A DNA stretch of 64,000 bases from positions 32,001 to 96,000 of the IMG/VR virus record IMGVR_UViG_2593339199_000003. One strand, written 5' to 3'. The translations under genes and the position numbers were made by a program. Positions 24,648 to 62,700 of this stretch are shown piece after piece. The DNA comes from a virus (taxonomy: Duplodnaviria; Caudoviricetes). The stretch's first letter is position 1, and each line of letters begins with the position of its first letter. The notes beneath the pieces were generated by a model that was not told where the DNA came from, made no database searches, and saw only the letters and a program-made list of their open reading frames with translations.

Positions 24648-24695
24648 AATGGATCCTCCTTTTGGGCCAATATGTAAAGAAAGCAATAGGGGGTG

Positions 24696-38930: not shown

Positions 38931-38931
38931 T

Positions 38932-40416
38932 CTACTCCACCCCGATCCTTTCAATCACTTTAAATGCGCTCTTGTCGATGACCTTTCTTAGCACCGTTCC
39001 ACCTTCCACATAATCAGCATCTGCTGTCATTGCATCCTTATACAACGTCCGAAGATATGCGGACCCATCGAGAACGACGCGATTATCGTCTTGAAATTGT
39101 ACTGACTCTCCGGCAGTAAAATCATTCAAGATGCTGTTTTGTATTACAGATCCGGCAACCATATCCACTTTCATTTTGATGTAACGGCCAGCTGGCGAAG
39201 CAATTGTGCCATCTGAGTTAATCGGCATGAAGTCAGAAAATACGCCTCCGTCAGATGAGGTAGCCGTTGAAATCGTCATCGCTGTTCCCGCTGGAACTAC
39301 CACCGATTTCCCAACATTGACAAATGACTTATAGTTACTTCCCAAGTCAATGACGGGCGTTTCATAAGACCCAGATGGAGCATAAAAATACTGAACACCG
39401 CTCTCCATTAACTCCATTTGGCCGATCATGACGCTGCCTGAAGAAGGCACGGTTATATTAATCCTGTAGTAGCGGTACTTGGACGTGTTTGATATTGGAT
39501 ACATACGCTTCTGACCGTAAGTTGTCCATGACTCGTTCACTCTTGTATCAAGCACGGTCCAGTTAGCATTATCCGCACTTCCCTCAAACGTCCATGATTT
39601 AGGCATCGTATTGTAAGAAAGCGAGCTGTTAAGATTCCTCGTTTGCAGCGTATACTGCGCAATAGCCTTTTCATTTCCTGCGCCAAAGTCAACCATTAAC
39701 CATCTGGCAACAGTGGTTGTTTCCCAGCAATAGTCCGACCCTAATGGTACATTATCACTGAATGCTCTCCATGCCGCATGAGTGGTCGTGTTATATTCGC
39801 CTGATGCCGAAATTTTGATCTGCGGATCGTTCAAGTTACCCGTGAGCGCAGGCACTACGTCGCTTGTATATCCGAATACTTGCGATCCTGTCACATGTAA
39901 CTGAATTTGTCCATTCATAACATCCACATTTGTCTTTACGCCGCCAACCAGATCAGCATCTTGGCTGTCCGTCTTCTGCTCATTCGTGGCCAACGATACG
40001 ACGACTGCAATTGGGTCCGCGGAGAGAGACTCTGCCGTAGTGACAACCGTCGCTTGCGCCTGGCCGGCTCCAATCACGACCTTTTTGCCAGCGGCATCAT
40101 ACTGGTAACCGTTGGATTTTGCTGCGTCGATACCGGTAGAATCGCCAAAGTCATCCAAGATCAGATCGGTTAAACTGAAACGATTTTGGTTCACAATAGT
40201 GTTCATGCGCAGACTATGTTTATTCATGTTTGCCGCGGTAACCGCTTCAAGGTCAGATACTAATTCGATTGCATTAGGAATCTTGTGGGATTCCAGTTCA
40301 ACAAGCCGATCATCCATATCAGCAAAGACATCTTGAACGCCAGAGCCAAGACGATCTGAAACGCCCTTCATTTTATTTTTTGCCTTCATCGCTTTAGAAA
40401 GCGAAATAATGTCCAT
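38932..40416 (-). CDS. Discoidin-domain tail/RBP protein
   Basis: WRAFSD...WLMVDFG...PKSWTFEGSAD..W...YRYYRI...IGQMEL. Confidence 0.75.
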   Translation of the reverse strand: MDIISLSKAMKAKNKMKGVSDRLGSGVQDVFADMDDRLVELESHKIPNAIELVSDLEAVTAANMNKHSLRMNTIVNQNRFSLTDLILDDFGDSTGIDAAKSNGYQYDAAGKKVVIGAGQAQATVVTTAESLSADPIAVVVSLATNEQKTDSQDADLVGGVKTNVDVMNGQIQLHVTGSQVFGYTSDVVPALTGNLNDPQIKISASGEYNTTTHAAWRAFSDNVPLGSDYCWETTTVARWLMVDFGAGNEKAIAQYTLQTRNLNSSLSYNTMPKSWTFEGSADNANWTVLDTRVNESWTTYGQKRMYPISNTSKYRYYRINITVPSSGSVMIGQMELMESGVQYFYAPSGSYETPVIDLGSNYKSFVNVGKSVVVPAGTAMTISTATSSDGGVFSDFMPINSDGTIASPAGRYIKMKVDMVAGSVIQNSILNDFTAGESVQFQDDNRVVLDGSAYLRTLYKDAMTADADYVEGGTVLRKVIDKSAFKVIERIGVE

Positions 40417-40466
40417 CACGTCTCACCTCTTTCATGAAGTAAGGAAAAGCGGGAGTAGGTTTTCCC

Positions 40467-46232: not shown

Positions 46233-49200
46233 TTACTTTGTCGGATAATGGAGATGGACGTGATTGTAGTGGTCCGCGCGCGTGGTGAAGGTGTTCTTCG
46301 GATACTTCTTCCGCATCTGATTCAGCAGATCATCGTCCGCATGCAGGATGCCATCGAAGCCTGCCTGGACCGCCAGGTCGATTACCATTTCCACCATGTC
46401 CCGATCGGCGCTGTTCGTGAAGCGCAGCTTGCCGGCTACCACTTTCATGTCCGGCGTGTCGATATCGACTGCAAAGCCGGTATTGTGCCAGCTCAGCGAT
46501 CCGTCCGGTTTTCGATACGTCGAGGTAACCATGAGCTTCTTGCCGCCGCTTTTCGCCGTGTATACCGCGCCTAGTTGCTGCAGAAGATCTGCAGATGCTT
46601 GGCGGATCAGTGGTGCCTGCATGATCGGCTCATAGAAATTGACACTCGTTACCTTCGTCGTGCTGACCAGCACGCTCTTGGCTTGCTCAGGCGTCAACGA
46701 GTATTGTTTCATCCCGGCCGACCCAGTTGTCGTTGGCACTTCCGCGCTAGTCCCGTTCGTCCCACTCGATGCCTTCGGAGCGTCCGGAGTCGGCGGCAAA
46801 AAATTCGGATCGTGCTTGGCGATCTTGGCCATGATCTGCGCAATCCCGTTGTGCCAGTTCTTGTCGGAGGCATACTTAATGTTCATGCCAACAAGTGTTG
46901 AGCCATTGTAATACTTGCCGCCTGCGGTCAGGTAATTCGTCTTTATCTTATTGGCTGCATAGTAGATGCAATCCTGTGGCGTCGCAAACGTATAGGCGCC
47001 ATCATATGGATTGCTATCGACCGCGCCGTAGCCAAAGAGGTTGTTCTTGTCCTTGAAGATCCTGGATGTCCCCCACCCTGTTTCCCACGCCGCATGCGCT
47101 GCGAGGTAAAGTCCGCTCATGACGCGAGCACTTCCCGCTCCGTCCCCTTGTAATGCGAGAGGCGATGGCGCTGAAGGAATGGAGATCTCAAGTTGCTTAA
47201 AGTATTTGCCGAGCCCCGCAAGACCGGTTCCTTCAAAGGCAGCATCGATTGCGTCAGCTGAAATGCCGCTCGGCTGATTGAGGTCCATTGTGTCAAAGCT
47301 GGTGCCGGCAGCGTAGCCAGATCCCCCGCTTGAGTCGCTGCCACCCAATGAGGACGTCAGGTCATCTGAGGTCAGAAGCGTTCGATCTTCTTCATAGGTT
47401 GGCTTCCGATTGAAATCCGCCTCTTGGCGTGCGACTTGTCCCTGCAGCTGCTTGGTCGCTTCGCCGACCTCGAAGTTATACACCTCGGCGGCCTGCGTAT
47501 CCGCGATCACCTTGTAGCGATGCTTCTCGAAGAAGCTGGACGCAAACTGCGAGAAGTCAACGGAACTGCCGCTGGCCTGCATGGAGAGATCGTCATCGGA
47601 GGCGATCGGCGCATACTGAGACGTGTCTGCGCCCAGGAATCCGGCGAGAACACCACCGACCACATCGTTAGTCAAGAACCGCTGCCAGAAGTCTGGAGAG
47701 TCGCCGATCACCGAGCCCATATGGCCATTGATGCCTGCAGAGAACTCGATGCCGTCGCGGCGGAGCACCGCAATGATGCAAGACTTCCGCGTGAACAAGA
47801 AGCGCTCGATGAACTCGGATATGCAGGCACAGGCAATCTCGACGACGGCCGTTTCAATCAGATAGGCTGCAATGCCAACCGGTCCGCCAAAAATAGCGAG
47901 CGCACCCGTGGCCATCTCCCATCCTCGCTTCCCCCAGCGGCCGGCCTTGGCCGTAACCTTAAAGCCAGTCGCCATCATTTTGCTTGCACCTGTCTTGAGT
48001 TTCGCGAGTTTGGCAGCGTCTATTTTATTGTAGCCCTTGAAACGCTTGTCGTACAAAGCTTCGTACAAGTTATCAAACAGCGCCTGAGCGTCTTTTTCGG
48101 TGAAATTCTCGATCTTAGACGCCATATCCTTGAGTATTCCGCTTTTTGTCCAGCGATTCTTCATTTCATCTGTAACAGGATCGTAACGCCTTACTTCTTT
48201 GGTTACAGGATCAATCTCGACACGATAGTTCTTCGTTTCGATCGTTCTTGGTTTCGAAAGTTCCTCTCCTGCCGCCGTGGTCCATTCCATCAGCTTGGAG
48301 CCCACTTTGGTCGCATCGAACTTCCCTTTCATCGCTTCATAGCGCCGCTTGACCACGGACCAGATCGCATTCATGACTGGGAATGCGCCTTTATAGCCCA
48401 TGTTCCGGAGGACAGCACGCAGCGTATACGACATAATCATGTAGGCGGCTGTGTGCGTCAGTCCCTGCAGCATCGTCATGACATGACGATCGCTGTTGAC
48501 GACGACGGCATCCGGCTTGATCATCGTGATGTAACCCGTCTCAAAATTCAGCAGATGGTTCACTTCACGAACCTCGATTGGCCCGCTCATATTATTGAAC
48601 GTATCGTTGAAATAGCAGATGTCGTAAGGCTTCACGCTTGGATCACCCATGACCGTCAGATAGCCGTCGTACATTTGCTTCACGTAATCCCGGAGGCCAG
48701 CTGCGGCGATCTTGATGGCCGTCCATTCATCGAAGTACCATTTCGGCAGCTTGTTCAGGAAGTGTCCGATGATCGGGATATTCTCGATCAGCCGGATACC
48801 CTGCGCATTCAGCTGCGTATCAATCTGCACTGTCCGCTGCATCTCCGGCCAAATGTTCGTGTCTACGTAGATCGCCTGCGTCGTATCGAGGTTGCCCTCG
48901 TTGCTGTAGACGCCGACCGCGACCGTGTACATGTTCTCCGTCGTGGCGATGATCTGATTCTCGACGATGGACGTCCAGCTGTCATAGATGTGATACTGCC
49001 GGAATGGCTTCGACACGGCTTGGATATCATAGCTCGCCAGGTTCGTATCCTGCATGCTTTTCCCGCCGGCGACGTCGTAGGCATACGCAATCGGGAAGTA
49101 TGGCTTGCCCATGAAAATCGTGTTGCGGAAGTCGTAGGGATGAACCGCGACTATGAAGTCCTCGCCCACCGCAGCGCAAATGTTCAGCACGTCCCATACC

Positions 49201-52200
49201 GTCTTGTCGTACAGGCTAATGTTGATACCGTCCTCGTCGCCCTTGCCGATTCCGAAGAAATTGCCGAGCTTGTTCCAGAAGCTGTTCTCCTGGAAGCGCA
49301 GCAGACCGGTCGTCTTGTAAATGTTCTGCGTGATCTCATTGCGCTGCCGATCCTCAAAGGCGCCGTTGAAATTGATCGCAAGGTGACTGACTGGCGGCCC
49401 CGGCATGCCGAAGTGCATGATGCCGAGTGAGTGCTGCTGGTAATCCGCATTGCTGAACTGCGTCTTGAGGTCCCCCCAGAAGCCGGTGTGGTCCGTCAGG
49501 ATCTCATCGAGGATCTCAGTCGGTTCCTTCTTGCTGAACACCCAGCCGCGGGTCGTATCGCCCGGAGAGGCTTTCAGTTTGTGCGTCAACTCGATGCCGT
49601 CGTCCTGGCAGACGGCTGTGATTGTTTCGCCGTTGTTTTGCAGCTGCGTGATGACGCCGTTCATCATCGTCGGCATGTTGATGGCGTTGGATCCATACCC
49701 CATTCGGAAGTGAACGCGGGCGCCGGTGCGCAAATAGATCGAATTGTACCAGTTCGGATTACGACCGCGGCGCGCCTTCTCTGCTTCACGCGCGAGCGAA
49801 GCGGGATTGAACATGAGCTGCACGATATCCCAGCCGTTCGTGTTCGTCAGGTCAAAGCTTTTAGCCGCGTCATCCAGCGAACCGAAGACGTTCGACATCT
49901 CGAGCACCAGCGTGCTGGAGGCTGTCTTTCGGCTGTTCGTATACATGATATCCATGACAGCCCGGTAATTGAAGTAGTTGTCGGACATCTTGGTCGCCGC
50001 TACGAATTGCCCCTCATCAATGAAGAACAGCAGGAACGTCGGGAACGCCCTCACCAGCCGGCCGCGGCGGTCGTACTTGCGCATATCATGAAAGCTCTCG
50101 CGGAAGGTCACGTCCATATCGGCGTAATCTTCCTCCGTCAGGTTGCTCTCCTGGAACTGCGCTGTGTCACTCGTGGCGCTTGCCGTTTTGTAGTCGGCCA
50201 CCGGCAGCGTACTGTATTTCTCCGTGAGCTGCGCTTCGGTCCACCTGCCGATCTTGTCCACCTTGCTGAGCACTGTCTTGATCAGATTGACGATCAAGTA
50301 CGGCATCTTCTTGTTGCTGTTCAGCAGTAGATTGTATTCCCGCTCGTAGCCGAGATACATGGCGATCGCGCCGACCCAGATAGCCTTTTGCTTCTGTGTG
50401 CTCGTCAGGCCGAACGTCGTATAGATGTTGTCTCCGACCAGATTGACGCCGGCGACAATATCCAGGTAATGCTGCATCAGTTTACATCCTTGCTCAACGT
50501 TGTACTCGATGTTGCGTGCAAGGCTGTTCGGATCCCCCATGAGCGGGCTGACGCGCATGACGCCGATGAATGATGCCTCCCGGATGAAGTTCTCATCCTT
50601 GAAGTAGCGCAGGTCATGCATCTGTAGGATCGGCACAGACGCTGTGGTCACTTCGATATTGCCGAGCTCTTTATTCGCTCCGGGCCCGACCGTGTAGAAC
50701 TGGCGCATCTGCGGATCAAACGTTTTGGCCAGCGCCAGCATCAGCACTTGATCCACGCGAGAGACGGTATTGTCGGACTGCGCGTTGGCCACGTCCTGCG
50801 ATTTCTTTCGAATCAGCGTCTCGATGTCTTGAACGGACAAGTTTACGGTATCGACTGAGCTCGGTGTTTGCGTGGACGCGACGGGCGACGGCGTGGTCTG
50901 CTGCTTCGCTGCAATGTCATCCGTGACTACTTGGCCAGGCTCGACGCTTCCCGGCACGACCGAGGCCGATCCATTCATGGAGTCCCGCCACTCCGATGGC
51001 GTCGTCGAGTTGGCGTTCATGTACTGATCGAGTTCTTCCCCATAATCGATCGGGTCATTGTAGATCAGGAAGAAGTCAGGATCGACGTAGACGCCATTGT
51101 TTAGATTCGGGATTACGAAGCCGGCATCCGCCACCTCTTTGTACGTCGGCAATTCGAGGTCTGGATAGAGCTCGACATTCTTCATGAGTTCCTTGACCTT
51201 TGATTCGTAGATCGCCCGCTTCTGGAAGTCTTGGTCGCTCGTCCAGTCGGCGAGGCCGGCAAACTGCAGCCAGTCCCGTGAAGCAGGATCATCAAACGGA
51301 TTCCACCAGGCGTAGTTACTGAGCTCGAACGGGATCGTCTTGTTATTCGCCGAATCGTAAAGCATCTGCGTTTCTTCCAGGCGCTTGGCTGCCCGGTTGA
51401 AAGCGGAGAGCGTCAGCGTGATTTCATGCACGCCGGGCTGCCCTTCAACCGTGCTGGACACCATGTCTTCAATGACGACATACGTACAGCCAAACAATCG
51501 GGTAAGCTGATGGTCGAACTCGATAAAGCCATTCGACAGCACCGAATGATATTCCCGATTCAGATACGTAGAACGGCGAACCAGATTCTCCAAGCTTCCA
51601 AGGGCTTCTGGATCATCGGCTTTGAAACGCGCAACATATACGGCATCTTGCGATCCTAAGTATTGATGGGTTGGCGATTCATGCATCTGAATCTGGGTCG
51701 GCGTGATGATATTCTGGTAGCCGACGCTCAGCTCCTGCAGGTACAGGCCGGGGATATCCCAATTGTCCATTCGAAACTCATTCGTCTGCAGCAACTTATA
51801 AATATCATCGCCGTACATCTTGTCGATCTCGCTGTCAAACATGACCTGCTTGGCTTCATCATAGAAGCCGTGTGGCACGCCATCCTCATCCTTGCCTAAT
51901 GGCTTTGGCACTGGGAAGATACCGCCGATCCAGGTCCAGTCTTCTTCATCGAAGCCGGCCTTGTCGGTTTTGTCATCCATCCATAGCTTGATCAGCTTGT
52001 CGCGCTTGTCCTTCCAGTCCTTCATCGCTTCCAGGTCTTCTTCTGCGGCAATACGAAACATGTATTCATTATGCAGGTCGATCTGCAGTGGCTCATAGAA
52101 GACAAGGTTTCGTTTTGGATTCGGCTCCAAGCTGCGACGATAATGCCAGCGAAACAGCGGCCAGTTGAACATCTCCTCGTAGCTGCGCTCCGACTGGTCG

Positions 52201-52631
52201 AAGATGTAGGAGAACGGATTGAACGCGTACATCTGAACCTGCGCCATGAGGCAACCGGGGAAGCCATCAACCGTCTGCACAGAGATCGATGAGATTGTGA
52301 CAGCCTCTACCTGATACGTGTCGTTCAGGAGCATGTTCGTGACAGGCAGGAATGGACACTTGCGGACCTGTGCCAGAAGCGGACGCAGCTCATTGTTGAT
52401 GCTCTGCAGGCCCGGGAAGAACAGATTCAGTTCAATAATATGGTCAAAGTGCCCGGCCGATTTCACCATACTGCTACGGCTGCGGAGCACATTGACCTTT
52501 TCGTTTTTCATTCGCTTGGTTACGGTGATTGCGGTCGGGGGCACATAATACTGTGAATCCCCGATGCGCAAATGATGATCCCGTAACGCCCCATAAAGGG
52601 CGTCACGGTCATCCACTCCGATCGTAGACAT
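46233..52631 (-). CDS. Giant baseplate hub / tail-associated lysin (GH73 glucosaminidase, M15-like peptidase, degenerate SLT-like domain)
   Basis: AAHAAWETGWG..NNLFGYGA.D..YASD..W; VTSTYR..SWH..G.AVDI..HVHL; hub-like RMGYGS....MMNGVI..L. Confidence 0.8.
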   Translation of the reverse strand: MSTIGVDDRDALYGALRDHHLRIGDSQYYVPPTAITVTKRMKNEKVNVLRSRSSMVKSAGHFDHIIELNLFFPGLQSINNELRPLLAQVRKCPFLPVTNMLLNDTYQVEAVTISSISVQTVDGFPGCLMAQVQMYAFNPFSYIFDQSERSYEEMFNWPLFRWHYRRSLEPNPKRNLVFYEPLQIDLHNEYMFRIAAEEDLEAMKDWKDKRDKLIKLWMDDKTDKAGFDEEDWTWIGGIFPVPKPLGKDEDGVPHGFYDEAKQVMFDSEIDKMYGDDIYKLLQTNEFRMDNWDIPGLYLQELSVGYQNIITPTQIQMHESPTHQYLGSQDAVYVARFKADDPEALGSLENLVRRSTYLNREYHSVLSNGFIEFDHQLTRLFGCTYVVIEDMVSSTVEGQPGVHEITLTLSAFNRAAKRLEETQMLYDSANNKTIPFELSNYAWWNPFDDPASRDWLQFAGLADWTSDQDFQKRAIYESKVKELMKNVELYPDLELPTYKEVADAGFVIPNLNNGVYVDPDFFLIYNDPIDYGEELDQYMNANSTTPSEWRDSMNGSASVVPGSVEPGQVVTDDIAAKQQTTPSPVASTQTPSSVDTVNLSVQDIETLIRKKSQDVANAQSDNTVSRVDQVLMLALAKTFDPQMRQFYTVGPGANKELGNIEVTTASVPILQMHDLRYFKDENFIREASFIGVMRVSPLMGDPNSLARNIEYNVEQGCKLMQHYLDIVAGVNLVGDNIYTTFGLTSTQKQKAIWVGAIAMYLGYEREYNLLLNSNKKMPYLIVNLIKTVLSKVDKIGRWTEAQLTEKYSTLPVADYKTASATSDTAQFQESNLTEEDYADMDVTFRESFHDMRKYDRRGRLVRAFPTFLLFFIDEGQFVAATKMSDNYFNYRAVMDIMYTNSRKTASSTLVLEMSNVFGSLDDAAKSFDLTNTNGWDIVQLMFNPASLAREAEKARRGRNPNWYNSIYLRTGARVHFRMGYGSNAINMPTMMNGVITQLQNNGETITAVCQDDGIELTHKLKASPGDTTRGWVFSKKEPTEILDEILTDHTGFWGDLKTQFSNADYQQHSLGIMHFGMPGPPVSHLAINFNGAFEDRQRNEITQNIYKTTGLLRFQENSFWNKLGNFFGIGKGDEDGINISLYDKTVWDVLNICAAVGEDFIVAVHPYDFRNTIFMGKPYFPIAYAYDVAGGKSMQDTNLASYDIQAVSKPFRQYHIYDSWTSIVENQIIATTENMYTVAVGVYSNEGNLDTTQAIYVDTNIWPEMQRTVQIDTQLNAQGIRLIENIPIIGHFLNKLPKWYFDEWTAIKIAAAGLRDYVKQMYDGYLTVMGDPSVKPYDICYFNDTFNNMSGPIEVREVNHLLNFETGYITMIKPDAVVVNSDRHVMTMLQGLTHTAAYMIMSYTLRAVLRNMGYKGAFPVMNAIWSVVKRRYEAMKGKFDATKVGSKLMEWTTAAGEELSKPRTIETKNYRVEIDPVTKEVRRYDPVTDEMKNRWTKSGILKDMASKIENFTEKDAQALFDNLYEALYDKRFKGYNKIDAAKLAKLKTGASKMMATGFKVTAKAGRWGKRGWEMATGALAIFGGPVGIAAYLIETAVVEIACACISEFIERFLFTRKSCIIAVLRRDGIEFSAGINGHMGSVIGDSPDFWQRFLTNDVVGGVLAGFLGADTSQYAPIASDDDLSMQASGSSVDFSQFASSFFEKHRYKVIADTQAAEVYNFEVGEATKQLQGQVARQEADFNRKPTYEEDRTLLTSDDLTSSLGGSDSSGGSGYAAGTSFDTMDLNQPSGISADAIDAAFEGTGLAGLGKYFKQLEISIPSAPSPLALQGDGAGSARVMSGLYLAAHAAWETGWGTSRIFKDKNNLFGYGAVDSNPYDGAYTFATPQDCIYYAANKIKTNYLTAGGKYYNGSTLVGMNIKYASDKNWHNGIAQIMAKIAKHDPNFLPPTPDAPKASSGTNGTSAEVPTTTGSAGMKQYSLTPEQAKSVLVSTTKVTSVNFYEPIMQAPLIRQASADLLQQLGAVYTAKSGGKKLMVTSTYRKPDGSLSWHNTGFAVDIDTPDMKVVAGKLRFTNSADRDMVEMVIDLAVQAGFDGILHADDDLLNQMRKKYPKNTFTTRADHYNHVHLHYPTK

Positions 52632-52644
52632 AGGCTCTCATCTC

Positions 52645-55600
52645 CTACGAGTATTGCTGGACTTTATCTCGATACCAGATACGATTCAGCCTGTTGGCGT
52701 TATCGGATTGGTTCACGGACATGTTAATCTTCCCGCCGTTATACCCGGATCGCTGCATAGCTTGTCCGAGCATCGGGCCAAAGTTCTGCGACCCGCTCCC
52801 CTGCGCGGAAATCTTAATATTAGCGCCGGAGTTGCCGGCATCAATCGGGGCCATTGCGGGAGCTGGTGTTCCGCCATATAGGGCTGCTGCATCTGCTCTC
52901 GCTTCAGTTTCAGACTCGGGATTGTAAGGCATTACAGGATCTTTATCATTAAATGTATTGTACCCCATTATACCTGCAAGCGCTAGACCTCCGATGAGCG
53001 CCGCCTTTTTATTTCTGGGCCCGTTCTTACCGTTAAAGAACTTGTCCATCGCCCCCGAAATCTTCTCGTAGGCCTTCGGGCCGAGCATCCCGCCGGTGCC
53101 GTCTTCGATCATCTCGGCAATGGTGCCGGCCGGTCCCTCAAGACGCTTGGTCATCGGCGAGGAGCTAAATGGCTCCAGCGGATTCACCTTGCGGTATTCG
53201 GGCGTCAGGCTCGGTTGTTGCGGCCTGTCGATCGTCATTCCGCCTTCGCTACGCAGGATGTCTTGCAACGGATTCAGGAATGGATTCGCCGTCGTGGCGT
53301 TCGGGTTGCGCCCCATAATCGTGTCTACGATTTCCTCCAGGCTGTGATCGCCCAGTCTCATGCCTTGGCTCGTGCCGGCCCGCAGCTCCGGATTGTCCAT
53401 CCCCTTCTTCATAACATCGAGCGCGCGGGTTAGGTGCCCCATCGCCAGTTTCAGGTTGTCTCCGAATTGACCATTGAAGTATTTGTTGTCCACCTCGATG
53501 GCCTGCTTCGTATTTCCTCGCTCAATGGCACTCAATAGATCGGCAGCGCCTGACTTCGTAAATAACCCCTGGCCGGTGCCGTGCTTGGAGGAGATCGTTA
53601 AGTCTTGCTCCAGGCCTTGCCCCAGTTTATAGATCTGCCCTTTGACTTCGGGGCTATCGGCGTAGAAGGTGTCCGCAACCTGACGCATCCGATAGTTGAG
53701 GTCCGATGCGCGGCCGATGAACTCCTTACCGGATTTCGCCATGATCTCCGGCAGCTGATTGGCCTCAAACCGATCCACGGACTCAAGGCCTTTCTCTTTT
53801 CCGCTTCGGACATTGTAATCCTCGAAGATGCTTTTCAACGAGAACTCTCGAGAGCTATCAAGCTTGAGTTCGCCCTCGTTAAGCGCCTGCTCATACGTCA
53901 TCGAGTTATTAAGCGCATTCTGGTAAGCCTGCTCGTGACGGGCCGCTCTTACCTCCCGCTGCTCAGCATGATTACGGGCCAGCTCCTCTTGCACGCCCTG
54001 ATCGTGAATTGCGACGATGTGGTTGTAGTCACCGTCTGAGTCTTCCTTCAGCAAGGATGCAAGCAAAGACGTCGTATTATGGAAGCCGGCAGGCACTGAT
54101 GGATCCATCTTAATTTTGACAGACTGGATGGCGTTCTCCGTAAAGGTTGGAAAGCGCAGGTCCGGCGCATAGAAATCTTTCTGAAGCGCTGGATTATGAA
54201 GTGCGCCTTCATTGCCGCCGAGCAGGTGCTCATAAATCCCCATCGTCTTCGCTTCGTTCGGGTTAATGAAGACCGTTTCACCATCGAGCCGCATCGATTC
54301 TTCGATCGGCATGACCTTTGCAAGGCCGCTGGAGGATGTCGGCATATTCACCTTCAGTACGCTGTTACCCGTTTGATCACTGGATGCCGTCACGGCAGAT
54401 ACGGTTCCTGCGAAGTATTTGCCCAGGCTTCGATTCAAGCCCTGCATGGCCTTCACTTGCGCTGATTCGCCGTCCGCCTTGGTTACCGCCTCGGCGCGCC
54501 GATAGATGTCTGCAATGTGGCGCCGCATATCACGCAGCCAGATTTCTTCCCCTTTGCCGTCCGTCTTCGTGAACGGGATGAAGACCCGATCCATTTTACG
54601 GCCTTCCACTTCCGGCAGTATGGCTTCTTTCTGCCCGTTCACATGAATGTTCGGGAGCTCCATCCAGAAGCCATGGTAGTCATTTTCACCGACCAGCTTC
54701 CGGACGTGTTCGTCATCCAGAATCGTGCGTGAGATCGTCGTGAGGTTCGTGTCCAACGTCGGCAGCGCATGGAAGTCGTGGAGGCGCAGCGTCCGGTTTT
54801 CGAAGTCAGGATCGAATCCTGGCCCTTCAACAGCACCGCGCAAAGCATTGACCATGCCGATCGCTTCCTGCAGCCGGCCGGTTTCTTTCGACTGATCGAC
54901 AAGGTAACGGAACATGTGCTCCCTGGTCTTGTCGAGCCCTTTGACTTGCAGCATGCCTAGTTCACGGAAGCCGTACTTGACGCCCTTCACATCGCCGCCT
55001 TCTTTATAGGCCACGTCGATCAAATTGCCGTTGTCATCCACATTGTACTTAAGGACGGCTCGGCGCTGCTCATCAACGACGGTCGAATAGTTTTGCACCT
55101 GCGCGATCCGCATAGCCTGCACACCTGTGATGTAGCCGGCGCTATTGGATTCGGCAAGCCCAAGCCCGAATCGATCGTTCAACTTTCCGTAGAGCCGACC
55201 GAAGTTTCGGTAGTCCATACGCTTGTATTTCGCACTCACGTCATCGAACAGCAGCTCGCCATTCTTGTACGATGCATTCACGCCGATCCGGCCCTGGTTG
55301 ATCATCCGCATCGCTTCTTGGATATCTGCCTCATTAAGCACGTTCTCTTTTATCGCGTTCTGCATGGTGTACATCAGCTTGTTGGCCTGACCGCGCAGCG
55401 CGCCACCAAGGTCACCGTGCTTGCCGATATTCGGGTTGTAGACGACACCGACGTTTTCTTCGCCGAACAGCTCCTTCAAGAACTCGGATCCGTAGCCGTA
55501 TTGGCCGTTGTGCATGTTGCCGCCGATCGTGCCCTTCTCGATATCGAGGTAGACCTTGTTGGCCTGCTCGGTATATTCAATGGCAAAGGCGTTGTCGGTT

Positions 55601-58600
55601 GATCTTGCCGATGCGATCCGGCCGGCATACTTCTGATCATAGAATACGGACTGCCGTTGCCCGTCAACGATGCGGGTACCCAACCGGTCTCCCGGGCTGA
55701 TCACCATGTCTCGCCGGAGCTGCCCGTCAGCATCCAGGTACTTGCCATCCCACTTGATCTCATCGCCTCGGTAATACTTGTAGTTCTTCGTCTGCAGGCG
55801 ATTAACGAGATCCTTGTTAAAGATCATCTGCTGTTCGTAGACGTTCGGCTTCCGGAGTACATTAACGCTTCCGTCCGCCCGTAGTATCCCTTCTTCTGTC
55901 AAGATACGACGTATGTTATCGTCGCCCTGCGCCTGCGCGATCAAGTCATCTACCCGGCGGGTAACATCTGCCTGGTTGGCCATGACAGTATTCACGTAGA
56001 CCTCCGGCTTGTACGGATAGAGCTTACTGTGCTGCCGCTGAACAGCCGTTGATACCATGTGGTTGGTCGAAGCCACGCCTTCTGCCTCTTTCAAGGAAGC
56101 TTCCAAGTCCTTGTCGATCCGGTAGCTGTTCATCGCCTGAACGGAGTTGTCTCGATTCTGTACCGTGAAATGGCCGTAGGCGAATAGATTTCGAGCATCT
56201 ATGGAGCCGATGCCGCCCCTTGCTACGACGTCTGCTTTAGCCGAGGAGTAGAAGCCCCGTCCGAAGCCGTTCTTCTCCAGCCACTCCGGCATGTCGCGAC
56301 GGATCATAAACTTGGCTTCGTCATGCAGGTCATCCAGTTTGACGAATGGAATCAACTGTTTCTTGCCGGCATTCAGAATCACGTCCGTATTTCGGAAGCT
56401 CCGGTCGGTCAACGTGCCGTCTTCATAATACTGCTGAATCATCGCGGCTGCCGGATACTTGAGGCCCTGCTTGAGCAAGTCGGCTTCTGTATTCGTGACG
56501 AGCAGGTTCTCGTTAAAGTCCCGCTTCACGCCGGAGAGCTCGCTGACAAAGTTGTTCATGAGTCGGCGGGCCGAGGCCGTGGCCTCCGATAGCTCCCCAT
56601 CCTTCAGCTGCTGCGCCATCGTATTGATGTTCCATTCCGATCTGTGATCGAGCAGGCGCGGATCCGCCAGCATATGCCCCATCTTCTCCACGGTGGAAAT
56701 CTCACTATTCACGCCGTTGACGCGGATGATATCGCGTGTGGCATTGAAATGTCGGTTGCCGTAGACCAGCGTGCCCTGCTGATTAATCAGCGGTACCGTG
56801 AACTCGAACGCTTTCGGATGCGCCTCCGATGCGCCGCCGGCCATATGGCGAAGCACGCTTGCACTGTCATCTGGATGGAACATTGTGATGAAGGCTTGGG
56901 TCGCCTCCGGATTCATCGAGAGCGCCATGTTCAAGCTTGGATTCATCTTCTTCAACGTGCCCATCATACCTTCGATGGCCTGGCGATTATTCGGATTCAT
57001 CCCCGTGAACTTGTGCTGACGATCCAGCTTAGCGAACATATCGCCGATATCTGTCCCTGGCCCCGGGATAAAGCCGTTATTTAAGAGGTAGCCGCGCATA
57101 CCTTGCGTCTGCTTGATGGCCGATTTCACCAGTTGCTGGCCCGCTTGTTTGGAAATCCTCTCCACGGATTCCCGGCGCCCCAGCGACTCCTCTGTAATGC
57201 GGCGAATCGTCAAGTGCTGTTGCTCCATCAGATCAAGTGCCAGCTGCTCAATCGATGCCGGGATCGTCAGCTTGCGATCATGAATCCCGGTGATAGCGCC
57301 CTGCACATAATCGTCGTCGATGATGCCAGATCCCTTCAGCGAGGAAAGCAGGATCTTAAAGCGCTCGGCCCGCTCCACAGCTTTCTCTGTCTCTGCCAAG
57401 TCTCCTGTCCCTTTGAAAACATAGCTTCGGAATGAATTGATGGCATTGTTGGCATTCTGTAGCGACACGCTGACGCTCTTGCCGGTTAGGCGGTCACGGA
57501 ACTGGAAGCCATTCTGCTCGTAAGGAAGCGAGGCACGAACGGTTTTATGCTGGCCGGCCGATTCATTCACGCGCTCATGAAAGAGTGACCAGGCAATGTT
57601 TTTCTGCTCGGCTTCCATGCCGGAAGCGTCGATGGCCTCGATGGCGCCTTGGTACAGCGAGTGCTCGGACATGAGGCGCGGGAGCATCTTCCAGAATGCC
57701 TTCTCCTCGTCCGGATTGTAGACGAAGGACTTGCTCGTGCCATCCCATAGGGAATTGAAGTTCATCATGCCCTTCATTTCATCGCGGCTGATACGCTGCT
57801 TGAGCAGGCGGCCGATGATCTTTTCGCGTGCCTGATCGTATTGCTCTGGCGTCCAGGAGCGCATGAACTGCCCGTTCTTCATCGTCAGCTCGTCCAGCTT
57901 GCGGGAGGCCTCTGCCTCGATTGCGCTCCAGCGGCCGGAAGTAAACTTATTGTAGACTGCGGCATTGGCGTACATCCGCTTAGCGGCATCGAAGCCGGCG
58001 GTCGATTTCTTGTCGAGACTGAACAAGCTTTCGTACCGGCGGCGCCCGAGGTCAGACTCACGCAAGTGCTGGATCTGCTTGCGCATCTTCTTACTAATGT
58101 TGCTCATCGGCGTGAAGCTGCGATGATAGAAGTCGGCAATCTCATAGGCGGCATTCTCGCCCTCACGGACAACAAACGAACGGAGCTGCGGATTGTCCTG
58201 GTTCACGAACTCAATCGCCCATTTCGGGACACCACCAGAAGACAAATCGCGAACGCCAGCCACCCGGTAGAAGGACTCGGCATTGATGACGTTCTGGTTA
58301 AAGCCCGGACGGAAGATCTTATAGGAGCCGTCTTCCGTAAGCTCCGCTTGATAATCCAGCTGGCTGCCCTTGTAGTTGCGCACGCCGCGCGTGGCAAACA
58401 GCAGATCGCTCGTCGTGAGCGGCTTATTGCTGTGCATGAGATAAGGCGTTCTCTGCCCCAGCTGCCTTGGCTTGTAGTCGGCCTTGACCTCCGTGGATCC
58501 AAGCAGATCGTCAACGTAATTCCAGGTGTTCGCGACAAGTCCGCCGACCCCATTCATGCCGGTATCGAAGCTTGCGGAGTGGGAGCCTGCTGTGCTCATG

Positions 58601-59694
58601 CCGAGCGTGCGCCGCCATTCGGCAAGCGACCATGGGCCCTCCTCGAACGGAAGCGACGATGGACGGCCGTGCTGCTCGTGAAGTTTGATCGGATTACGCG
58701 CCACAGACTGCATCACGCGGTAATAGTCCATGTGATTCTGCGGCAACACCATTTCCTTTCCGGTGATGGATGAGAACCGGCGCATCCGCTCCAAGTCGAA
58801 GCTGTCGCCATTCATCGTGACGAAGTAGCTGTTCTTGTGCTTGCCGACGAACGCATTATACTCATCAATGGCACTCGCATAATCTGCACCGTGCTTCACC
58901 AGATTCTTAATTCCATCTCGCATATGACGCAGATACTGCGTCTGGTTGCGCGTGATCTCATCGGTCAGAATGGTTTTGCCGCTCAAAACGGAGTTGATAG
59001 CCGAGTTATGCATCACTTCAGCCCCAAACGTAGCAGCACTGATTCCGTTACCGCCGATCGAGGAATACCGTATCAAGTCGACGACTGTCCGCTGTTCGCT
59101 TGGATTCAGCAGTGCAAATTGCCCTATCTGCACCTTACGGATCAGCTTGTTAAGCTCACCTTGCATGTGTTTGTTTGGAGCAACCAGCTTATTGAATCGA
59201 TGCGTCTTGGATTCGCCCGTGTATTGACCCCCGCGGTAATTAATGCCATTGGCTGAGATCTCTGAGATGAAGAAGTTCTTCGAGTCCGTATCTCCGAGCG
59301 TCTCGATGTCGAGGCCGAAGAACCGGCCAGGACCACCGCCTCCCCCCTTGGCGCGTCGTGCAAAATCGCGAAACGACTCGATATGACGCTGCGCATCAAT
59401 CGCGAACCCGCTATAAGGGTCAGCGCTGCCGACCGGGTTCAGGAAGCTCCAGATGTTGGTGCCGCCCATATTGATTACGCCGCTCTGGGTAGGCAGCGCT
59501 GGCATCTTATTGATGGCATCATTCAGCCGGATCAGAGATGGGTTGACGCCAGACCGCTCCGTGGCGGGCCGGGTTATCGGGTTGTATGCCGACAGCATGA
59601 CCCGCTTATGGCGATCGGCCGGCACATATTCCAGGCCGGCTCCGATCCCCGCGTTAACATTTGAATAGAGTTGATCGTAATTTGTTGTCGCCAT
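52645..59694 (-). CDS. Putative virion-associated single-chain two-barrel RNA polymerase fused to a DEDDh exonuclease
   Basis: DIE / NGDSFD / HSASFD exonuclease motifs; beta-like KVYLDIEKG, VGVVYNP, GVKYGFRE; beta'-like LRFPT...EDSDGD; C-terminal hydrophobic segment. Confidence 0.72.
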   Translation of the reverse strand: MATTNYDQLYSNVNAGIGAGLEYVPADRHKRVMLSAYNPITRPATERSGVNPSLIRLNDAINKMPALPTQSGVINMGGTNIWSFLNPVGSADPYSGFAIDAQRHIESFRDFARRAKGGGGGPGRFFGLDIETLGDTDSKNFFISEISANGINYRGGQYTGESKTHRFNKLVAPNKHMQGELNKLIRKVQIGQFALLNPSEQRTVVDLIRYSSIGGNGISAATFGAEVMHNSAINSVLSGKTILTDEITRNQTQYLRHMRDGIKNLVKHGADYASAIDEYNAFVGKHKNSYFVTMNGDSFDLERMRRFSSITGKEMVLPQNHMDYYRVMQSVARNPIKLHEQHGRPSSLPFEEGPWSLAEWRRTLGMSTAGSHSASFDTGMNGVGGLVANTWNYVDDLLGSTEVKADYKPRQLGQRTPYLMHSNKPLTTSDLLFATRGVRNYKGSQLDYQAELTEDGSYKIFRPGFNQNVINAESFYRVAGVRDLSSGGVPKWAIEFVNQDNPQLRSFVVREGENAAYEIADFYHRSFTPMSNISKKMRKQIQHLRESDLGRRRYESLFSLDKKSTAGFDAAKRMYANAAVYNKFTSGRWSAIEAEASRKLDELTMKNGQFMRSWTPEQYDQAREKIIGRLLKQRISRDEMKGMMNFNSLWDGTSKSFVYNPDEEKAFWKMLPRLMSEHSLYQGAIEAIDASGMEAEQKNIAWSLFHERVNESAGQHKTVRASLPYEQNGFQFRDRLTGKSVSVSLQNANNAINSFRSYVFKGTGDLAETEKAVERAERFKILLSSLKGSGIIDDDYVQGAITGIHDRKLTIPASIEQLALDLMEQQHLTIRRITEESLGRRESVERISKQAGQQLVKSAIKQTQGMRGYLLNNGFIPGPGTDIGDMFAKLDRQHKFTGMNPNNRQAIEGMMGTLKKMNPSLNMALSMNPEATQAFITMFHPDDSASVLRHMAGGASEAHPKAFEFTVPLINQQGTLVYGNRHFNATRDIIRVNGVNSEISTVEKMGHMLADPRLLDHRSEWNINTMAQQLKDGELSEATASARRLMNNFVSELSGVKRDFNENLLVTNTEADLLKQGLKYPAAAMIQQYYEDGTLTDRSFRNTDVILNAGKKQLIPFVKLDDLHDEAKFMIRRDMPEWLEKNGFGRGFYSSAKADVVARGGIGSIDARNLFAYGHFTVQNRDNSVQAMNSYRIDKDLEASLKEAEGVASTNHMVSTAVQRQHSKLYPYKPEVYVNTVMANQADVTRRVDDLIAQAQGDDNIRRILTEEGILRADGSVNVLRKPNVYEQQMIFNKDLVNRLQTKNYKYYRGDEIKWDGKYLDADGQLRRDMVISPGDRLGTRIVDGQRQSVFYDQKYAGRIASARSTDNAFAIEYTEQANKVYLDIEKGTIGGNMHNGQYGYGSEFLKELFGEENVGVVYNPNIGKHGDLGGALRGQANKLMYTMQNAIKENVLNEADIQEAMRMINQGRIGVNASYKNGELLFDDVSAKYKRMDYRNFGRLYGKLNDRFGLGLAESNSAGYITGVQAMRIAQVQNYSTVVDEQRRAVLKYNVDDNGNLIDVAYKEGGDVKGVKYGFRELGMLQVKGLDKTREHMFRYLVDQSKETGRLQEAIGMVNALRGAVEGPGFDPDFENRTLRLHDFHALPTLDTNLTTISRTILDDEHVRKLVGENDYHGFWMELPNIHVNGQKEAILPEVEGRKMDRVFIPFTKTDGKGEEIWLRDMRRHIADIYRRAEAVTKADGESAQVKAMQGLNRSLGKYFAGTVSAVTASSDQTGNSVLKVNMPTSSSGLAKVMPIEESMRLDGETVFINPNEAKTMGIYEHLLGGNEGALHNPALQKDFYAPDLRFPTFTENAIQSVKIKMDPSVPAGFHNTTSLLASLLKEDSDGDYNHIVAIHDQGVQEELARNHAEQREVRAARHEQAYQNALNNSMTYEQALNEGELKLDSSREFSLKSIFEDYNVRSGKEKGLESVDRFEANQLPEIMAKSGKEFIGRASDLNYRMRQVADTFYADSPEVKGQIYKLGQGLEQDLTISSKHGTGQGLFTKSGAADLLSAIERGNTKQAIEVDNKYFNGQFGDNLKLAMGHLTRALDVMKKGMDNPELRAGTSQGMRLGDHSLEEIVDTIMGRNPNATTANPFLNPLQDILRSEGGMTIDRPQQPSLTPEYRKVNPLEPFSSSPMTKRLEGPAGTIAEMIEDGTGGMLGPKAYEKISGAMDKFFNGKNGPRNKKAALIGGLALAGIMGYNTFNDKDPVMPYNPESETEARADAAALYGGTPAPAMAPIDAGNSGANIKISAQGSGSQNFGPMLGQAMQRSGYNGGKINMSVNQSDNANRLNRIWYRDKVQQYS

Positions 59695-59709: not shown

Positions 59710-62700
59710 TTACATCAAAGATCCCATATTGTTGCGCAGATAGTTATCAATTTCGCCGCTGCGATCTTGCTCGTACTGCACGCCAACTCGTGTCGCAGCC
59801 CCGCTTGAAGGCGTCACGGTCACGTTGACGTTCTTCAGTCCTTGTCCTTGGAGCACGTCTTGGATATTGCGCTCCATTCGCTTGTAGCTGAAATCCGATT
59901 GCTGGTACATATTGTTGCCCTGGTTCGTCAGGTTCGGAGTCATGCGCGAGGCTTCCACGTCGTCCGGCCAGAAATTGAAGTCACTCAGATCCAGTTTCTG
60001 ATTCTGCACGACCTTGAGCTTGATGCTCTCAAGATCGAAGTCCGGCCGCCAACCGGCCCAGTTTGCATCCGGCAGCGCGTATTTCTGGAAGTAGTCTTCA
60101 AGTGGCGGCACGTATTCGTCCCCATAATCCCAAAGTGCTTTATAGATGCGCCTTTCATTTTCAGGCACAAGCTGCAGGATACGTTCCCGGTCCCGCTCCG
60201 GTGCATTCACGAAGTCATCGAAGAACCACTTATCCTTGGTCGGAAATGCTCGGGCCACCTTCATCCGATCGTCGTATGGATCGATCGCATATAAGGTTTC
60301 TTCACTTTGCTCTTTATATTGTAATGCCTGACGTACAATATCGGGAAGCATTATTTCGTCCCAGCCGCCCTCTTGCATGTCATTCAGTTCTTGATTGATT
60401 GCTTTGCGGCGATCGACCCATCCATCCGGCTGTTTTAAATAAAGCTGTCGCTTTTCTTCGTTAAGCTGTTGGCGCCGCTCCTTTGTGTTCGCCTGCTTCT
60501 GCTCGATGTCATTGATGAAACCATCGACATCGTAGCCCGACGCTTCAGCTTCCCGCTTTGTCGCTTCATAGAGTCCGGAGTATTTCATATACTTCAAGAG
60601 GTCGAAGTATTCATTGATCTCGTTCTCTTTGCGCCGGCGCTCCGGGATCCACGTCTCGCCGTTATGCGTGTATTCATAATGCCTTGCATACCCGTGGCCA
60701 AGGCCGCCAACCAGCGCGCCTATAATGGCGCCCGCTGCGACCCGCTTGCTGCCGCCGCCCCCGAGTACGCCCATAATGACCCCGCCGGTGATTCCGCCGC
60801 GCATCATCGATTCCAGTGTGTCGTGCCGGAAGGCCGACTGAAAGCCTGGAATTAGATAGTCGCTCGTCAGGAAGTTGCGCCAGGTCGCCCAGTCCTTGCC
60901 GTAAACTTGATCCCGCTCGTATTCTTCGAGTGCAGTGCGCACCTGCAGGAACTTCGTATTAAGCGGCGATTCGTAGTGGGCGATCGACTCCCACCGTGTG
61001 CCCTCTGCAATCTCGTCCGGCGTGAAGCGGGCGAAGACTGATGGTGCGGAGAAGTCCGTCAGGTTCTCCTTCATGAGGCCACGGCGCAGGATGTCCTGGT
61101 TGATATTCTTGAGTCCATCGAAGACAACAGCGCGCATCGTGCCGTACTGGTCATCGGAGATCCGCTGGCTCTGGTCCGCATTGATCCCCACCGTTACCTT
61201 ATCCCCTACCCCGATGTACGAGTCGAGCACCCCGTGTGCTGCCGGCTTGTAATCCATACCGGCCAGCCGGATCGGCGTATCGCCGTATTCCTTTGTAAGG
61301 AAGGTGTAGTCGTCGAGCATCTTGGTGACCGTCACTTGCTCTTTTTCCAGTTCGGCGTATTTAAAGCGATACTCCGTGAAGTCGTATTTCTGTTTTCGCT
61401 TGGCCACCTGACGCTTGATCTCAGCGGCCTGCTTTCGGACCTCCGGATCTGTTTCATTGTCGACCACATAGTCCCGCCAAAACTTGTACTCGTCGCTCCA
61501 CGGCGCCACGTCGGCCAAGATCTTGAACTTGTCGAAGCTGCCGTAGCGTCCGGTCTGATCGGGATGAAGCGGGTTCAGCTTCTCATAGGCATCGCCAGGC
61601 AGCCGGTAATCCCCGTGGGCCACTTTTGTATAGGGATCGCCTACCTGGAAGTTGATGAAATAATCGCCCCCCGGCAACCAGTCCGGCATCGTGTTGCGAA
61701 TCGGGTTGTATTCGTCCAGCTGGCCATCATCTGCGCGAATGAAACGACGCCCGATCTCGGAGATCGGTCCGCCAACAGATCCGAGGTTCATGCCCCAAAA
61801 CCGGTTCGACAGGTTGTTCGCGGCATCCGCCTTCTGGATGACCATGTTACCGGTGTACGGGTCGTCGCCGGCCACTTCATCAGCAATCCACTTGTAGACG
61901 CCGAGCGGCTCCGCCCAGTTCTGCGCGGATTCCTGCAGCCGCCAGTTGATGCTGCTCGGATCCTTCATCTCCCGCAGCTTACGGTTTCGAACTTCATTTC
62001 TGTAGGCGTACTCCTCCGCATGCATTGCGCGCGGCTTTGTCTCGACCATAGGCTCGTCGGTTCCGGCCATAGCAAACATCCGATCCATGCTGTAGCCTTC
62101 TTTGGCGATGTTGGCTGGCACGTACATGGCCTGGCCAGAGGTAATGTCCTGCGCCACGTAGGCGCCCGTTTGATTGCCCTGCTCATCCAGCTCGCTCGAG
62201 ACGAAATACTTCACCGGTGCGGCAACGGCACCCGGATTCACATCACCGGTTCCGGCCCATTTGCCGCTATATGGCGCGCCGTAGCTGGTTGGCCCTGCAT
62301 AGACGACATCCTCGGTCCGGCCTGCCGGCGACACCCGTGTGACGACCGGTTCAGTCGGACGATTGCCGAGCCCTTCATTCTCCTGCTCGATGAGTACCGG
62401 ATCACCCCAGTAATCCGGATGCATGCGGCGGCTTGGTTTCACGAGCTGCCCGATTGTTGCATTGCCGATATCGCCAAAGAACATTGTGTTCGGATTGAAC
62501 AAGGAGCCGGTCATCATGTAAGGCCGGTCATAGTAATGCTTCTGCTCCCAATAGTATTCATTTCCGTCCAGCATGCGCTTGAATATCCCGAGTGGATTCT
62601 CGAAGGTCGGAAGGATATTCATCTCACCATAACGTTCTTCGCCGGTGAGGCTTGTATTGGAATACTCCCAGTCGCTCATCGCCAGGCGCCAGTCGTTCGG

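Follow-up and report, generated by a model that had tools for sequence, protein, structure and literature searches.

What does a giant protein do that is encoded among the tail genes of a phage and carries the motifs of an RNA polymerase (RNAP)? The question is raised by a stretch of 64,000 nucleotides, here called the window, which covers positions 32,001 to 96,000 of the IMG/VR virus record IMGVR_UViG_2593339199_000003. The source record is 105 kb long and judged 53% complete, and nearly all long open reading frames (ORFs) of the window lie on the minus strand. The gene in question (P0001, 52645..59694; minus strand, as are all features of the protein given below) is a single ORF of 2349 aa, a giant multi-domain protein in the tail module. 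Its ATG start is found 15 nt past the stop of the preceding gene, with the sequence GAGGGTG upstream that resembles a ribosome-binding site, and 13 nt separate its stop from the start of the next gene. The answer that we consider fairly probable is that a 0305phi8-36-like jumbo myovirus of Bacillota here encodes a giant virion protein with a single-chain two-barrel DNA-dependent RNAP that is injected early.

A preliminary description of this DNA had proposed that the ORF contains motifs of the RNAP subunits beta and beta', in the order beta-like, then beta'-like. We recomputed the motif coordinates from the translation of the ORF. The observation is confirmed: all motifs are found, exactly in place or within a few bases, and the recomputed coordinates bear out their order. 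The metal-binding aspartate triad D1885-S-D-G-D1889 (54028..54042), LRFPT (aa 1846-1850, 54145-54159) and NKVYLDIEKGTIG (aa 1379-1391, 55522-55560) agree exactly, while YEQQ, VGVVYNP and GVKYGFRELGML are shifted by a few bases or less. In the beta-type barrel, the basic pair K1380...E1386-K1387-x-T1389 (55528..55557) is invariant in close-family alignments. The Y-E-Q-Q motif (aa 1286-1289, 55828..55839) includes E1287, which is invariant in 16/16 sequences and may correspond to the acidic residue that the beta-type barrel carries (Rpb2 D837 class). A beta C-terminal-like motif G-V-x-x-G-x-R-E follows at aa 1571-1578 (54961..54984), with G1571, V1572, R1577 and E1578 invariant. The R-x-P motif of the beta'-type barrel, R1847-x-P1849-T-F...A1855-x-Q1857 (54124..54156), is spaced by 38 residues from D1885. 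Across all stop-free frames of the window that have 100 aa or more (41,443 residues), the pattern of R-x-P, 30-45 residues and DxDGD occurs a single time, namely in this ORF, and it arises in 2 of 2000 shuffles of the 2349-aa protein.

Three features of the two-barrel superfamily are present in the protein: the DxDxD metal-binding triad in the beta'-type barrel, an invariant R-x-P about 35 residues ahead of this triad, and a pair of basic residues in the beta-type barrel, 7-8 positions apart. Ruprich-Robert and Thuriaux name these residue classes in their list of invariants common to all two-barrel polymerases (PMC2919709).

Conservation of these residues was followed from close to distant homologs. 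A word-indexed search returned 15 homologs of 2226-2729 aa with 25-50% identity across the polymerase region. Scanning IMG/VR yielded 12 related viral loci, all with the same synteny of three giants, and DxDGD is found in 12/12 of them (DSDGD in 8, DADGD in 3, DNDGD in 1). A family profile of aa 1150-2150, built from 12 sequences and searched against 1.84 billion cluster representatives, matched 104 proteins at E≤0.001, 40 of these also at E≤1e-30; their length is mostly 2100-3100 aa. For the conservation counts, the 90 stored proteins of at least 1000 aa were aligned to the profile, and 20 shorter ones (<1000 aa) were dropped. In this profile alignment, D1885, D1887 and D1889 as well as R1847 and P1849 are kept in 90/90 representatives, G1888 in 82/90, and K1380 in 73/90 with 13 gaps; position 1387 is K in 68/90 and R in 9/90 (K/R 77), with a gap in 12/90. 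The overall identity across the 90 representatives is 25-30%. At such a level of identity, invariance of the catalytic residues is the expected outcome of purifying selection on an active site. Loss of DxDGD in homologs, which the preliminary description had named as speaking against a polymerase, is not the case, since the three aspartates stand in all 90 representatives.

The names of the homologs point to Bacillota as hosts (Bacillus velezensis, B. atrophaeus and B. licheniformis), and further homologs lie on phage-sized contigs within assemblies of Alicyclobacillus shizuokensis and Oceanobacillus profundus. A transitive link to annotated polymerases is found through distant profile matches. 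One or the other of two PHROG families named 'RNA polymerase beta subunit' (phrog_2987 and phrog_3295) is matched by four of these proteins (P0106, P0046, P0068 and P0099) at E 1.6e-6 to 4e-4, and two of the four (P0106 and P0068) match the Pfam family RNA_pol_Rpb1_2 below its cut-off (E 0.003-0.006). In direct profile comparison by hhalign, the best alignment with E. coli beta' covers 417-483 and pairs R-x-P with the stretch R-A-P-T-L-H...D-F-D-G-D, and the best alignment with E. coli beta covers 1265-1291 at G-G-Q-R-F-G-E-M-E. Neither is significant (Prob 0.3 and 0.18, respectively); both best local alignments fall on pairings that had been proposed in the preliminary description.

The fold was predicted with AlphaFold2 for aa 1150-2150 from a 32-row alignment, with a mean predicted local distance difference test (pLDDT) of 86.2 and a predicted template modelling score (pTM) of 0.85. 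When this model was compared to the PDB with Foldseek, 457 matches reached E≤0.001. The best 50 of these 457 are all second-largest (beta/Rpb2) or largest (beta'/Rpb1) RNAP chains, so that the structure prediction and fold search suggested for this region at the outset come out in favour of a polymerase. Among these best 50, the second-largest subunits are led by vaccinia 9ex9_B (8.4e-7) and include the B chains of Pol I and Pol II, and the largest subunits comprise bacterial beta' from 2.9e-6 (5x22_D) and Rpb1. Single-chain phage and RNAi enzymes are absent among the best 50 of the 457, with no PolD, QDE-1 or gp66. In the predicted model, two barrels match the beta and beta' cores. Against BFVD, 29 matches at E≤0.001 include phage tail proteins and RNAP subunits of giant viruses; at the top stand an uncultured siphovirus's 'minor tail protein' (E 1.3e-20), an unnamed protein (6.5e-20) and a protein of Acinetobacter phage ME3 (3.7e-12). 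A search of the ESM Atlas with the polymerase module reached 0.85 for unnamed clusters and 0.78 for the nearest named family, an RNA-dependent RNA polymerase (RdRP) family; all scores are below 0.9 and serve as leads only.

Within the model, the basic pair K1380/K1387 is located in strands 231-234 and 237-241, and the Asp triad in the loop between helix 727-732 and strand 741-745. Around the beta'-like motifs, the model runs through strand, R-x-P loop, strand, strand, short helix, Asp-triad loop and strand, a succession that we take to be the pattern of the beta' barrel. Further downstream, a 30-residue helix (aa 1981-2010, 53665..53754; model helix 832-861) carries the six invariant residues K1987, K1990, G1994, A1996, S1997 and L1999 and, judged by position and length, may represent the bridge helix. 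It is followed by a helix, a flexible tip and a second helix (aa 2015-2058, 53521..53652; model helices 866-884 and 897-909), with pLDDT <50 in the tip at model positions 888-898 and with E2029, Q2030, I2034, K2037 and H2038 invariant, which by its position could be the trigger loop. In order, the module would then comprise a beta-type barrel (K1380/K1387), a beta'-type barrel in which R1847-x-P1849 is joined by the Mg-binding D1885-x-D-G-D1889, and the two elements that resemble bridge helix and trigger loop. The proposal of a single-chain two-barrel RNAP is supported by motif invariance, a confident model, the best 50 of the 457 Foldseek matches and the transitive sequence links. We conclude that aa ~1150-2150 (53245..56247) are predicted, with strong support in silico, to form a complete cellular-type RNA polymerase. 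The span of 53550-55860 first given for it takes in the catalytic core, while the folded module is wider, about 53245-56247.

[quoted passage not shown] At aa ~100-400 (58495..59397) a DEDDh 3'-5' exonuclease-like domain is recognized by its motif residues: Exo I D129-x-E131 (59302-59310), Exo II N295...F299-D300 (58795-58812) and Exo III H372...D377 (58564-58581). D129, E131, N295, F299, D300, H372 and D377 are invariant in 31/31 aligned sequences, and PF13482 scores above its cut-off on aa 271-334 of one homolog (P0006). The window's own domain has no sequence match in Pfam, NCBIfam or the PDB. The top Foldseek rows of the N-terminal model are the DEDDh nucleases CRN-4 (E 0.064) and ERI1/3'hExo (0.55), both weak. 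AlphaFold2 of aa 1-1149 (pLDDT 83.7, pTM 0.69) predicts alpha/beta domains and no long helical rod; Foldseek finds no PDB fold match for it at E≤0.001. The middle region, aa ~401-1149 (56248..58494), is made up of globular alpha/beta domains in this model. Downstream of the polymerase, a conserved Gly/Ala/Leu-rich hydrophobic segment (aa 2231-2245, 52960..53004) is visible as an alignment block, and a similar segment occurs in gp095 of phage WH1. It is not a strong transmembrane helix, because no 19-residue window at this segment attains a Kyte-Doolittle value of 1.4. The last ~60 aa (52648..52827), ending in W-Y-R-D-K, are conserved and match the last 60 aa of gp146 of phage 0305phi8-36 weakly from end to end (E 0.047 in a single comparison). 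The protein would thus consist of a DEDDh exonuclease-like domain and ~750 aa of globular domains N-terminal of the polymerase, and of a short hydrophobic segment and a 60-aa tail C-terminal of it.

What links this enzyme to the virus particle is the order of the genes and the annotation of relatives. In the direction of transcription, a sheath gene (phrog_16991, E 5e-182), three small tube-like paralogs, two chaperone-like paralogs and a 1952-aa giant precede the 2349-aa ORF, and the hub follows it. Past the hub come a baseplate-J-like gene, three genes for fiber proteins that have F5/8 type C domains, and more 'virion structural' giants. The upstream neighbour, the 1952-aa giant (59710..63999, minus strand, extending beyond the window end), is a homolog of CDS0026 of Moorella phage MTATph1 (E 9e-157) and has the position of 0305phi8-36 gp145; it belongs to no PHROG or Pfam family, and the ESM Atlas gave nothing usable for it, with scores <0.9. 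The downstream neighbour is a 2132-aa baseplate hub with a glucosaminidase domain (46233..52631, minus strand; phrog_20474 E=0, PF01832), which in tblastn matches the 'baseplate hub protein' ORF147 of 0305phi8-36 and the 'endolysin' of MTATph1. In 0305phi8-36, the order is chaperonins gp143/144, gp145, gp146 and hub gp147, and gp145 and gp146 are annotated as virion proteins identified by mass spectrometry. Taking the length of the tail as a guide, Hardies et al. gave gp146 the role of tape measure (PMC2147016), and because they call the gene in this position tape measure, the 2349-aa ORF holds the tape-measure slot as annotated in 0305phi8-36. It lies between chaperones and hub, one gene off the chaperones, as in 0305phi8-36 (PMC2147016). 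The preliminary description was right in placing the ORF next to the tail hub. Its naming of the upstream gene as tape-measure-like is to be qualified: in the 0305phi8-36 literature this name belongs to the slot of the ORF itself, and either of the two giants may set the tail length.

A classical extended tape measure is rejected for the 2349-aa protein, because both of its halves fold into compact, globular alpha/beta models (pTM 0.85 and 0.69). Searches of Pfam and PHROGs identified no tape measure protein (TMP) family of Pfam on it. Diverged orthology with gp146 or MTATph1 CDS0027 was considered and rejected, there being no similarity across the polymerase module. In the MTATph1 genome (OR602862; L014:7772-15128), the slot gene encodes an unrelated 1309-aa protein and is followed by an annotated transposase, two small ORFs and the hub; an insertion sequence may have entered the slot here. 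Exonuclease signatures are found in the unrelated slot proteins as well, with RNase_T on MTATph1 CDS0027 (E 5.4e-5) and an Exo I-like motif in gp146. An exonuclease may be a common cargo of slot proteins. The gp146 motif, L-D-I-E-T-T, is located mid-protein at aa ~1223, and Pfam has no match on gp146.

Several other genes of this region were seen in passing. The small genes directly after the sheath (L025:8267-9564, in the same record beyond the window's end) match phrog_9206, 'major head protein'; this label looks misleading, as their position makes tail tube paralogs more likely. The three fiber-like paralogs (774, 495 and 784 aa) are adjacent at window positions 36630-42821 (minus strand) and have F5/8 type C (discoidin) domains, one of them also a carbohydrate esterase N-terminal domain. 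Small parts of two giants of 2851 and 1744 aa (19452-33251, minus strand) match only PHROGs labelled 'virion structural protein' or unknown. Opposite the giants, antisense ORFs of 505-668 aa are present at 47424-49430, 61234-62751 and 29016-30578 (all plus strand); most likely these are no genes but, at 54% GC, shadows of the coding strand.

Are such proteins also found in cultured phages? With a distant family member (P0058) as query, tblastn detects homologs in the Bacillus phages vB_BauM_KLEB27-3 ('structural protein'), Edson ('hypothetical protein') and vB_BceM_WH1 (gp095, 'virion structural protein'), none of which is annotated as polymerase. Inspection of the WH1 locus shows gp095 adjoining a gp145 homolog on one side and the hub on the other, and in KLEB27-3 and Edson the matches lie, by coordinates, about 1.1-1.2 kb from the hub matches. 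WH1 gp095 aligns with the family profile in hhalign over 834 columns (Prob 96.1, E 3e-9) and contains R-Y-P-T and, 38 residues on, D-H-D-G-D. A scan of gp095 for the Exo I motif D-[IVLFT]-E-[TS] was negative. The exonuclease is consequently not an obligate partner of the polymerase, since gp095 has the polymerase signature without this motif. A candidate outside Gram-positive hosts is gene 36 of Acinetobacter phage vB_AbaM_ME3 (L028:6473-11284), a hypothetical protein of 1603 aa in the same slot. It has R-E-P at aa 1174 and, 43 residues later, a variant triad D-H-D-Q-D at aa 1217, and is possibly a Gram-negative-host counterpart judged from these motifs. The UniProt entry behind the BFVD match to ME3 (E 3.7e-12) could not be mapped to gene 36.

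The relatives of the virus encode a second polymerase. In one of them (G003) a gene with PF05183, the RdRP/YonO type, is detected at E 2.4e-10, and a protein search with its product finds orthologs in four others (G001, G002, G004 and G005) at E 1e-134 to 1e-161. This YonO-like gene of about 1160-1280 aa is present in 5/5 complete relatives, far from the structural module. Because it coexists with the polymerase of the slot, these five relatives each have two two-barrel polymerases. By hhalign, the YonO-like protein of G003 has no similarity to the family profile. In 0305phi8-36, the YonO-like orf99 is present and the slot polymerase is absent. A phage-specific promoter set was sought in G003, and only a dispersed intergenic palindrome without clustering at one genome end was found. 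The palindrome, TGTAATGCATTACA, is perfect and lies in dispersed intergenic regions; the exact 14-mer has 6 intergenic copies and 16 copies genome-wide. It may act as the site of a regulator or as part of a promoter or terminator.

Gene order, the annotation of relatives and precedent make it probable that the polymerase is carried in the virus particle and injected to start infection. For its packaging, ejection, template and timing we infer the following course. The 2349-aa protein would be made late, together with the tail proteins, and would enter the particle via the assembly line of tail lumen and hub, in the slot between chaperones and hub. Contraction of the sheath would expel it into the host, ahead of the DNA or with it, and the injected polymerase would transcribe the first-entering genes without host RNA polymerase. 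The YonO-like polymerase encoded elsewhere would take over later, in the same two-polymerase logic as gp96/gp64 of Thermus phage P23-45.

A number of points weigh against an injected polymerase. The window's protein has no sequence match to any solved RNAP by phmmer and profile search of the PDB, and no Pfam RNAP family is found on it; searches of the 2349-aa protein against Pfam, PHROGs, NCBIfam and the PDB (phmmer) gave nothing useful, and tblastn against 50,697 phage records no match. PF05183 and protein searches found no second polymerase in the window's own record, which is 53% complete; the missing YonO-like gene is probably explained by the record being half complete. The slot protein is not conserved. 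Since gp146 and MTATph1 CDS0027 have no polymerase signature, the position in the slot alone does not imply a polymerase role; Hardies et al. describe the same pattern, similarity of the end only, between gp146 and its BtI1 counterpart (PMC2147016). In WH1 and KLEB27-3, the labels as virion structural protein could have been transferred by homology rather than measured. Finally, both halves of the protein are predicted to be compact and globular, which fits poorly with storage in or passage through a tail tube, unless the protein is kept unfolded.

This last point is also what speaks for the alternative that survives best, an active polymerase that is not packaged and works as a late intracellular enzyme merely sharing an operon with tail genes: a predicted globular fold of about 2150 aa is an awkward cargo for a tail lumen. 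We nevertheless consider such an enzyme unlikely. There is little space between the gene and its two neighbours, both of which correspond to genes for virion proteins in 0305phi8-36; the last 60 aa of the product are similar to the end of gp146, which was detected by mass spectrometry; and with a free-standing polymerase already encoded in 5/5 complete relatives it is the early role, prior to expression, that would be left unfilled.

Quite unlikely is also that the ejected protein serves mainly as a motor, in which transcription by a tethered polymerase pulls the 200-kb genome in and RNA is secondary. The fused hydrophobic segment could anchor a polymerase at the entry pore, the authors of the P23-45 study propose transcription concomitant with DNA translocation (PMC10770324), and Hardies et al. 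raised polymerase-driven injection for orf99 of 0305phi8-36 (PMC2147016). A motor is, however, compatible with an injected polymerase that starts transcription, and the sequence does not separate the two.

A fusion of a two-barrel module with a DEDDh domain also brings other, proofreading polymerases to mind, with primer synthesis, RNA-templated synthesis (QDE-1) or DNA synthesis (archaeal PolD) as function. The exonuclease shares a chain with the module, its five DEDDh residues are all invariant, and two-barrel enzymes include RNA-dependent and DNA polymerases (PMC10770324, PMC9508822). We regard this as improbable in view of the fold search, in which the best 50 of the 457 matches are all subunits of DNA-dependent RNAPs and no PolD or QDE-1 is among them, and of the bridge-helix-like and trigger-loop-like elements predicted in the module. 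Bridge helix and trigger loop are stated to occur in all RNAPs compared in PMC10770324, where PolD is described as sharing only the two barrels. Exonuclease and polymerase are moreover separable, with the polymerase signature of WH1 gp095 lacking the Exo I motif and exonuclease motifs occurring in slot proteins without polymerase.

We consider it very improbable, finally, that the polymerase fold is a catalytically dead relic which a tape-measure or ejection protein has retained as a structural element. The slot protein shows great plasticity and the triad of ME3_36 is the variant D-H-D-Q-D, but the invariance of Asp triad, R-x-P and basic pair (the latter in the proportions given above) extends across 90 representatives at 25-30% overall identity.

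Beyond the injected polymerase of this one virus, there may be a more general principle, which we advance tentatively and with some doubt. The chaperone-hub slot of 0305phi8-36-like jumbo myoviruses could be a cargo slot for injected enzymes, which in a large family without annotation (at least 90 clusters at 50% identity) would deliver a cellular-type single-chain RNAP together with a DEDDh exonuclease; this would have arisen independently of gp96 and would reach a Gram-negative host (ME3). If this holds true, it would be for contractile-tailed phages the first case of a two-barrel polymerase delivered by the tail. Tail-delivered two-barrel RNAPs would then be a recurrent solution, beyond one Thermus siphovirus, and a contractile tail could carry one. 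The fused exonuclease may add a nuclease function that other virion polymerases lack, such as trimming of transcript 3'-ends or attack on host nucleic acids. The 'structural' and 'hypothetical' proteins of cultured Bacillus phages (WH1 gp095, Edson and KLEB27-3) would gain a testable function, and it would be explained how jumbo phages begin infection before the YonO-like polymerase is made. One may also ask how the tail would store and expel a globular enzyme of about 260 kDa. With its roughly 1000 aa and with cellular enzymes as nearest fold matches, the module could be used as a compact model of the cellular enzyme's minimal core.

How does this protein compare to known systems? The best structural matches, among the best 50 of 457, are the multisubunit RNAPs of cells and giant viruses, with which it shares motif order and spacing; the distance from R-x-P to the triad is 38 residues here and 35 in Rpb1 numbering (PMC2919709). 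In contrast to these enzymes, which exceed 2500 aa, the module is one chain of about 1000 aa, and no Pfam RNAP domain is detected in it. E1287 and K1380 are only 93 aa apart, which leaves little room for a beta flap insertion (PMC7824862). A fusion of the two subunits is also known from the beta::beta' protein of C. glutamicum named in PMC2919709.

YonO of SPbeta, orf99 of 0305phi8-36 and QDE-1-type enzymes (PF05183) are single-chain two-barrel polymerases as well, with Bacillota phages as carriers of the type. Unlike the protein described here, YonO-type enzymes are free-standing, of about 1200 aa, and in 0305phi8-36 encoded outside the structural module. Membership of the 2349-aa protein in the YonO/RdRP family is rejected, with no PF05183 match on the protein or the record and nothing in hhalign. 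The protein in the corresponding slot of 0305phi8-36, the 'hypothetical tape measure protein' gp146 of 2537 aa, shares the weakly similar last 60 aa and has the Exo I-like L-D-I-E-T-T motif, but differs in having neither a polymerase signature nor similarity to the module. Gp66 of phi14:2, a crAss-like phage, and the virion RNAP (vRNAP) of coliphage N4 resemble what is proposed here in that a polymerase is delivered with the DNA and is in or next to very large virion proteins (PMC10770324; bioRxiv 10.1101/2020.03.07.982082). They differ in belonging to podovirus-type particles with the proteins packed in the head. The N4 vRNAP is a T7-like right-hand enzyme.

The closest precedent is gp96 of Thermus phage P23-45, which the preliminary description did not include. 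The N-terminal 1200 aa of this 5002-aa tape measure are a two-barrel polymerase that is present in virions (Chaban et al. 2024, PMC10770324). Gp96 transcribes pre-early genes, among which is that of gp64, a second polymerase; gp64 is non-virion and is reported as the paralog of gp96 (PMC10770324). As in gp96, a single-chain two-barrel polymerase with a DxDGD triad is found here inside a giant tail-module protein and hidden under tail or structural annotation, and as in P23-45, a second, non-virion two-barrel polymerase is encoded in the complete relatives. There is no sequence similarity: hhalign against gp96 aa 1-1200 gives Prob 0.17 and against gp64 nothing, and a profile search of the PDB returns none at E≤10. 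Homology to gp96 or gp64 is rejected at the level reached by these two methods. The polymerase is located in the C-terminal half here and at the N-terminus in gp96, the tail is contractile here, as seen from the sheath gene, and that of a siphovirus in P23-45, and the chain is predicted to be globular throughout where gp96 is mostly extended. Unlike gp96, the protein has an N-terminal DEDDh exonuclease-like domain and no metallopeptidase was found in it, and the partner polymerase is YonO-like and unrelated in sequence, whereas gp96 and gp64 are paralogs. The idea of an undescribed lineage therefore stands for the sequence family within the literature searched, in which no description of it was found and in which the supplementary survey of viral two-barrel polymerases of PMC10770324 could include one. 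It does not stand for the kind of protein, which is already known because gp96 is a tape-measure-fused virion RNAP (PMC10770324). To this known kind of tail-module virion RNAP, the protein joins a new sequence family, the setting of a contractile-tailed jumbo phage and the fusion with an exonuclease.

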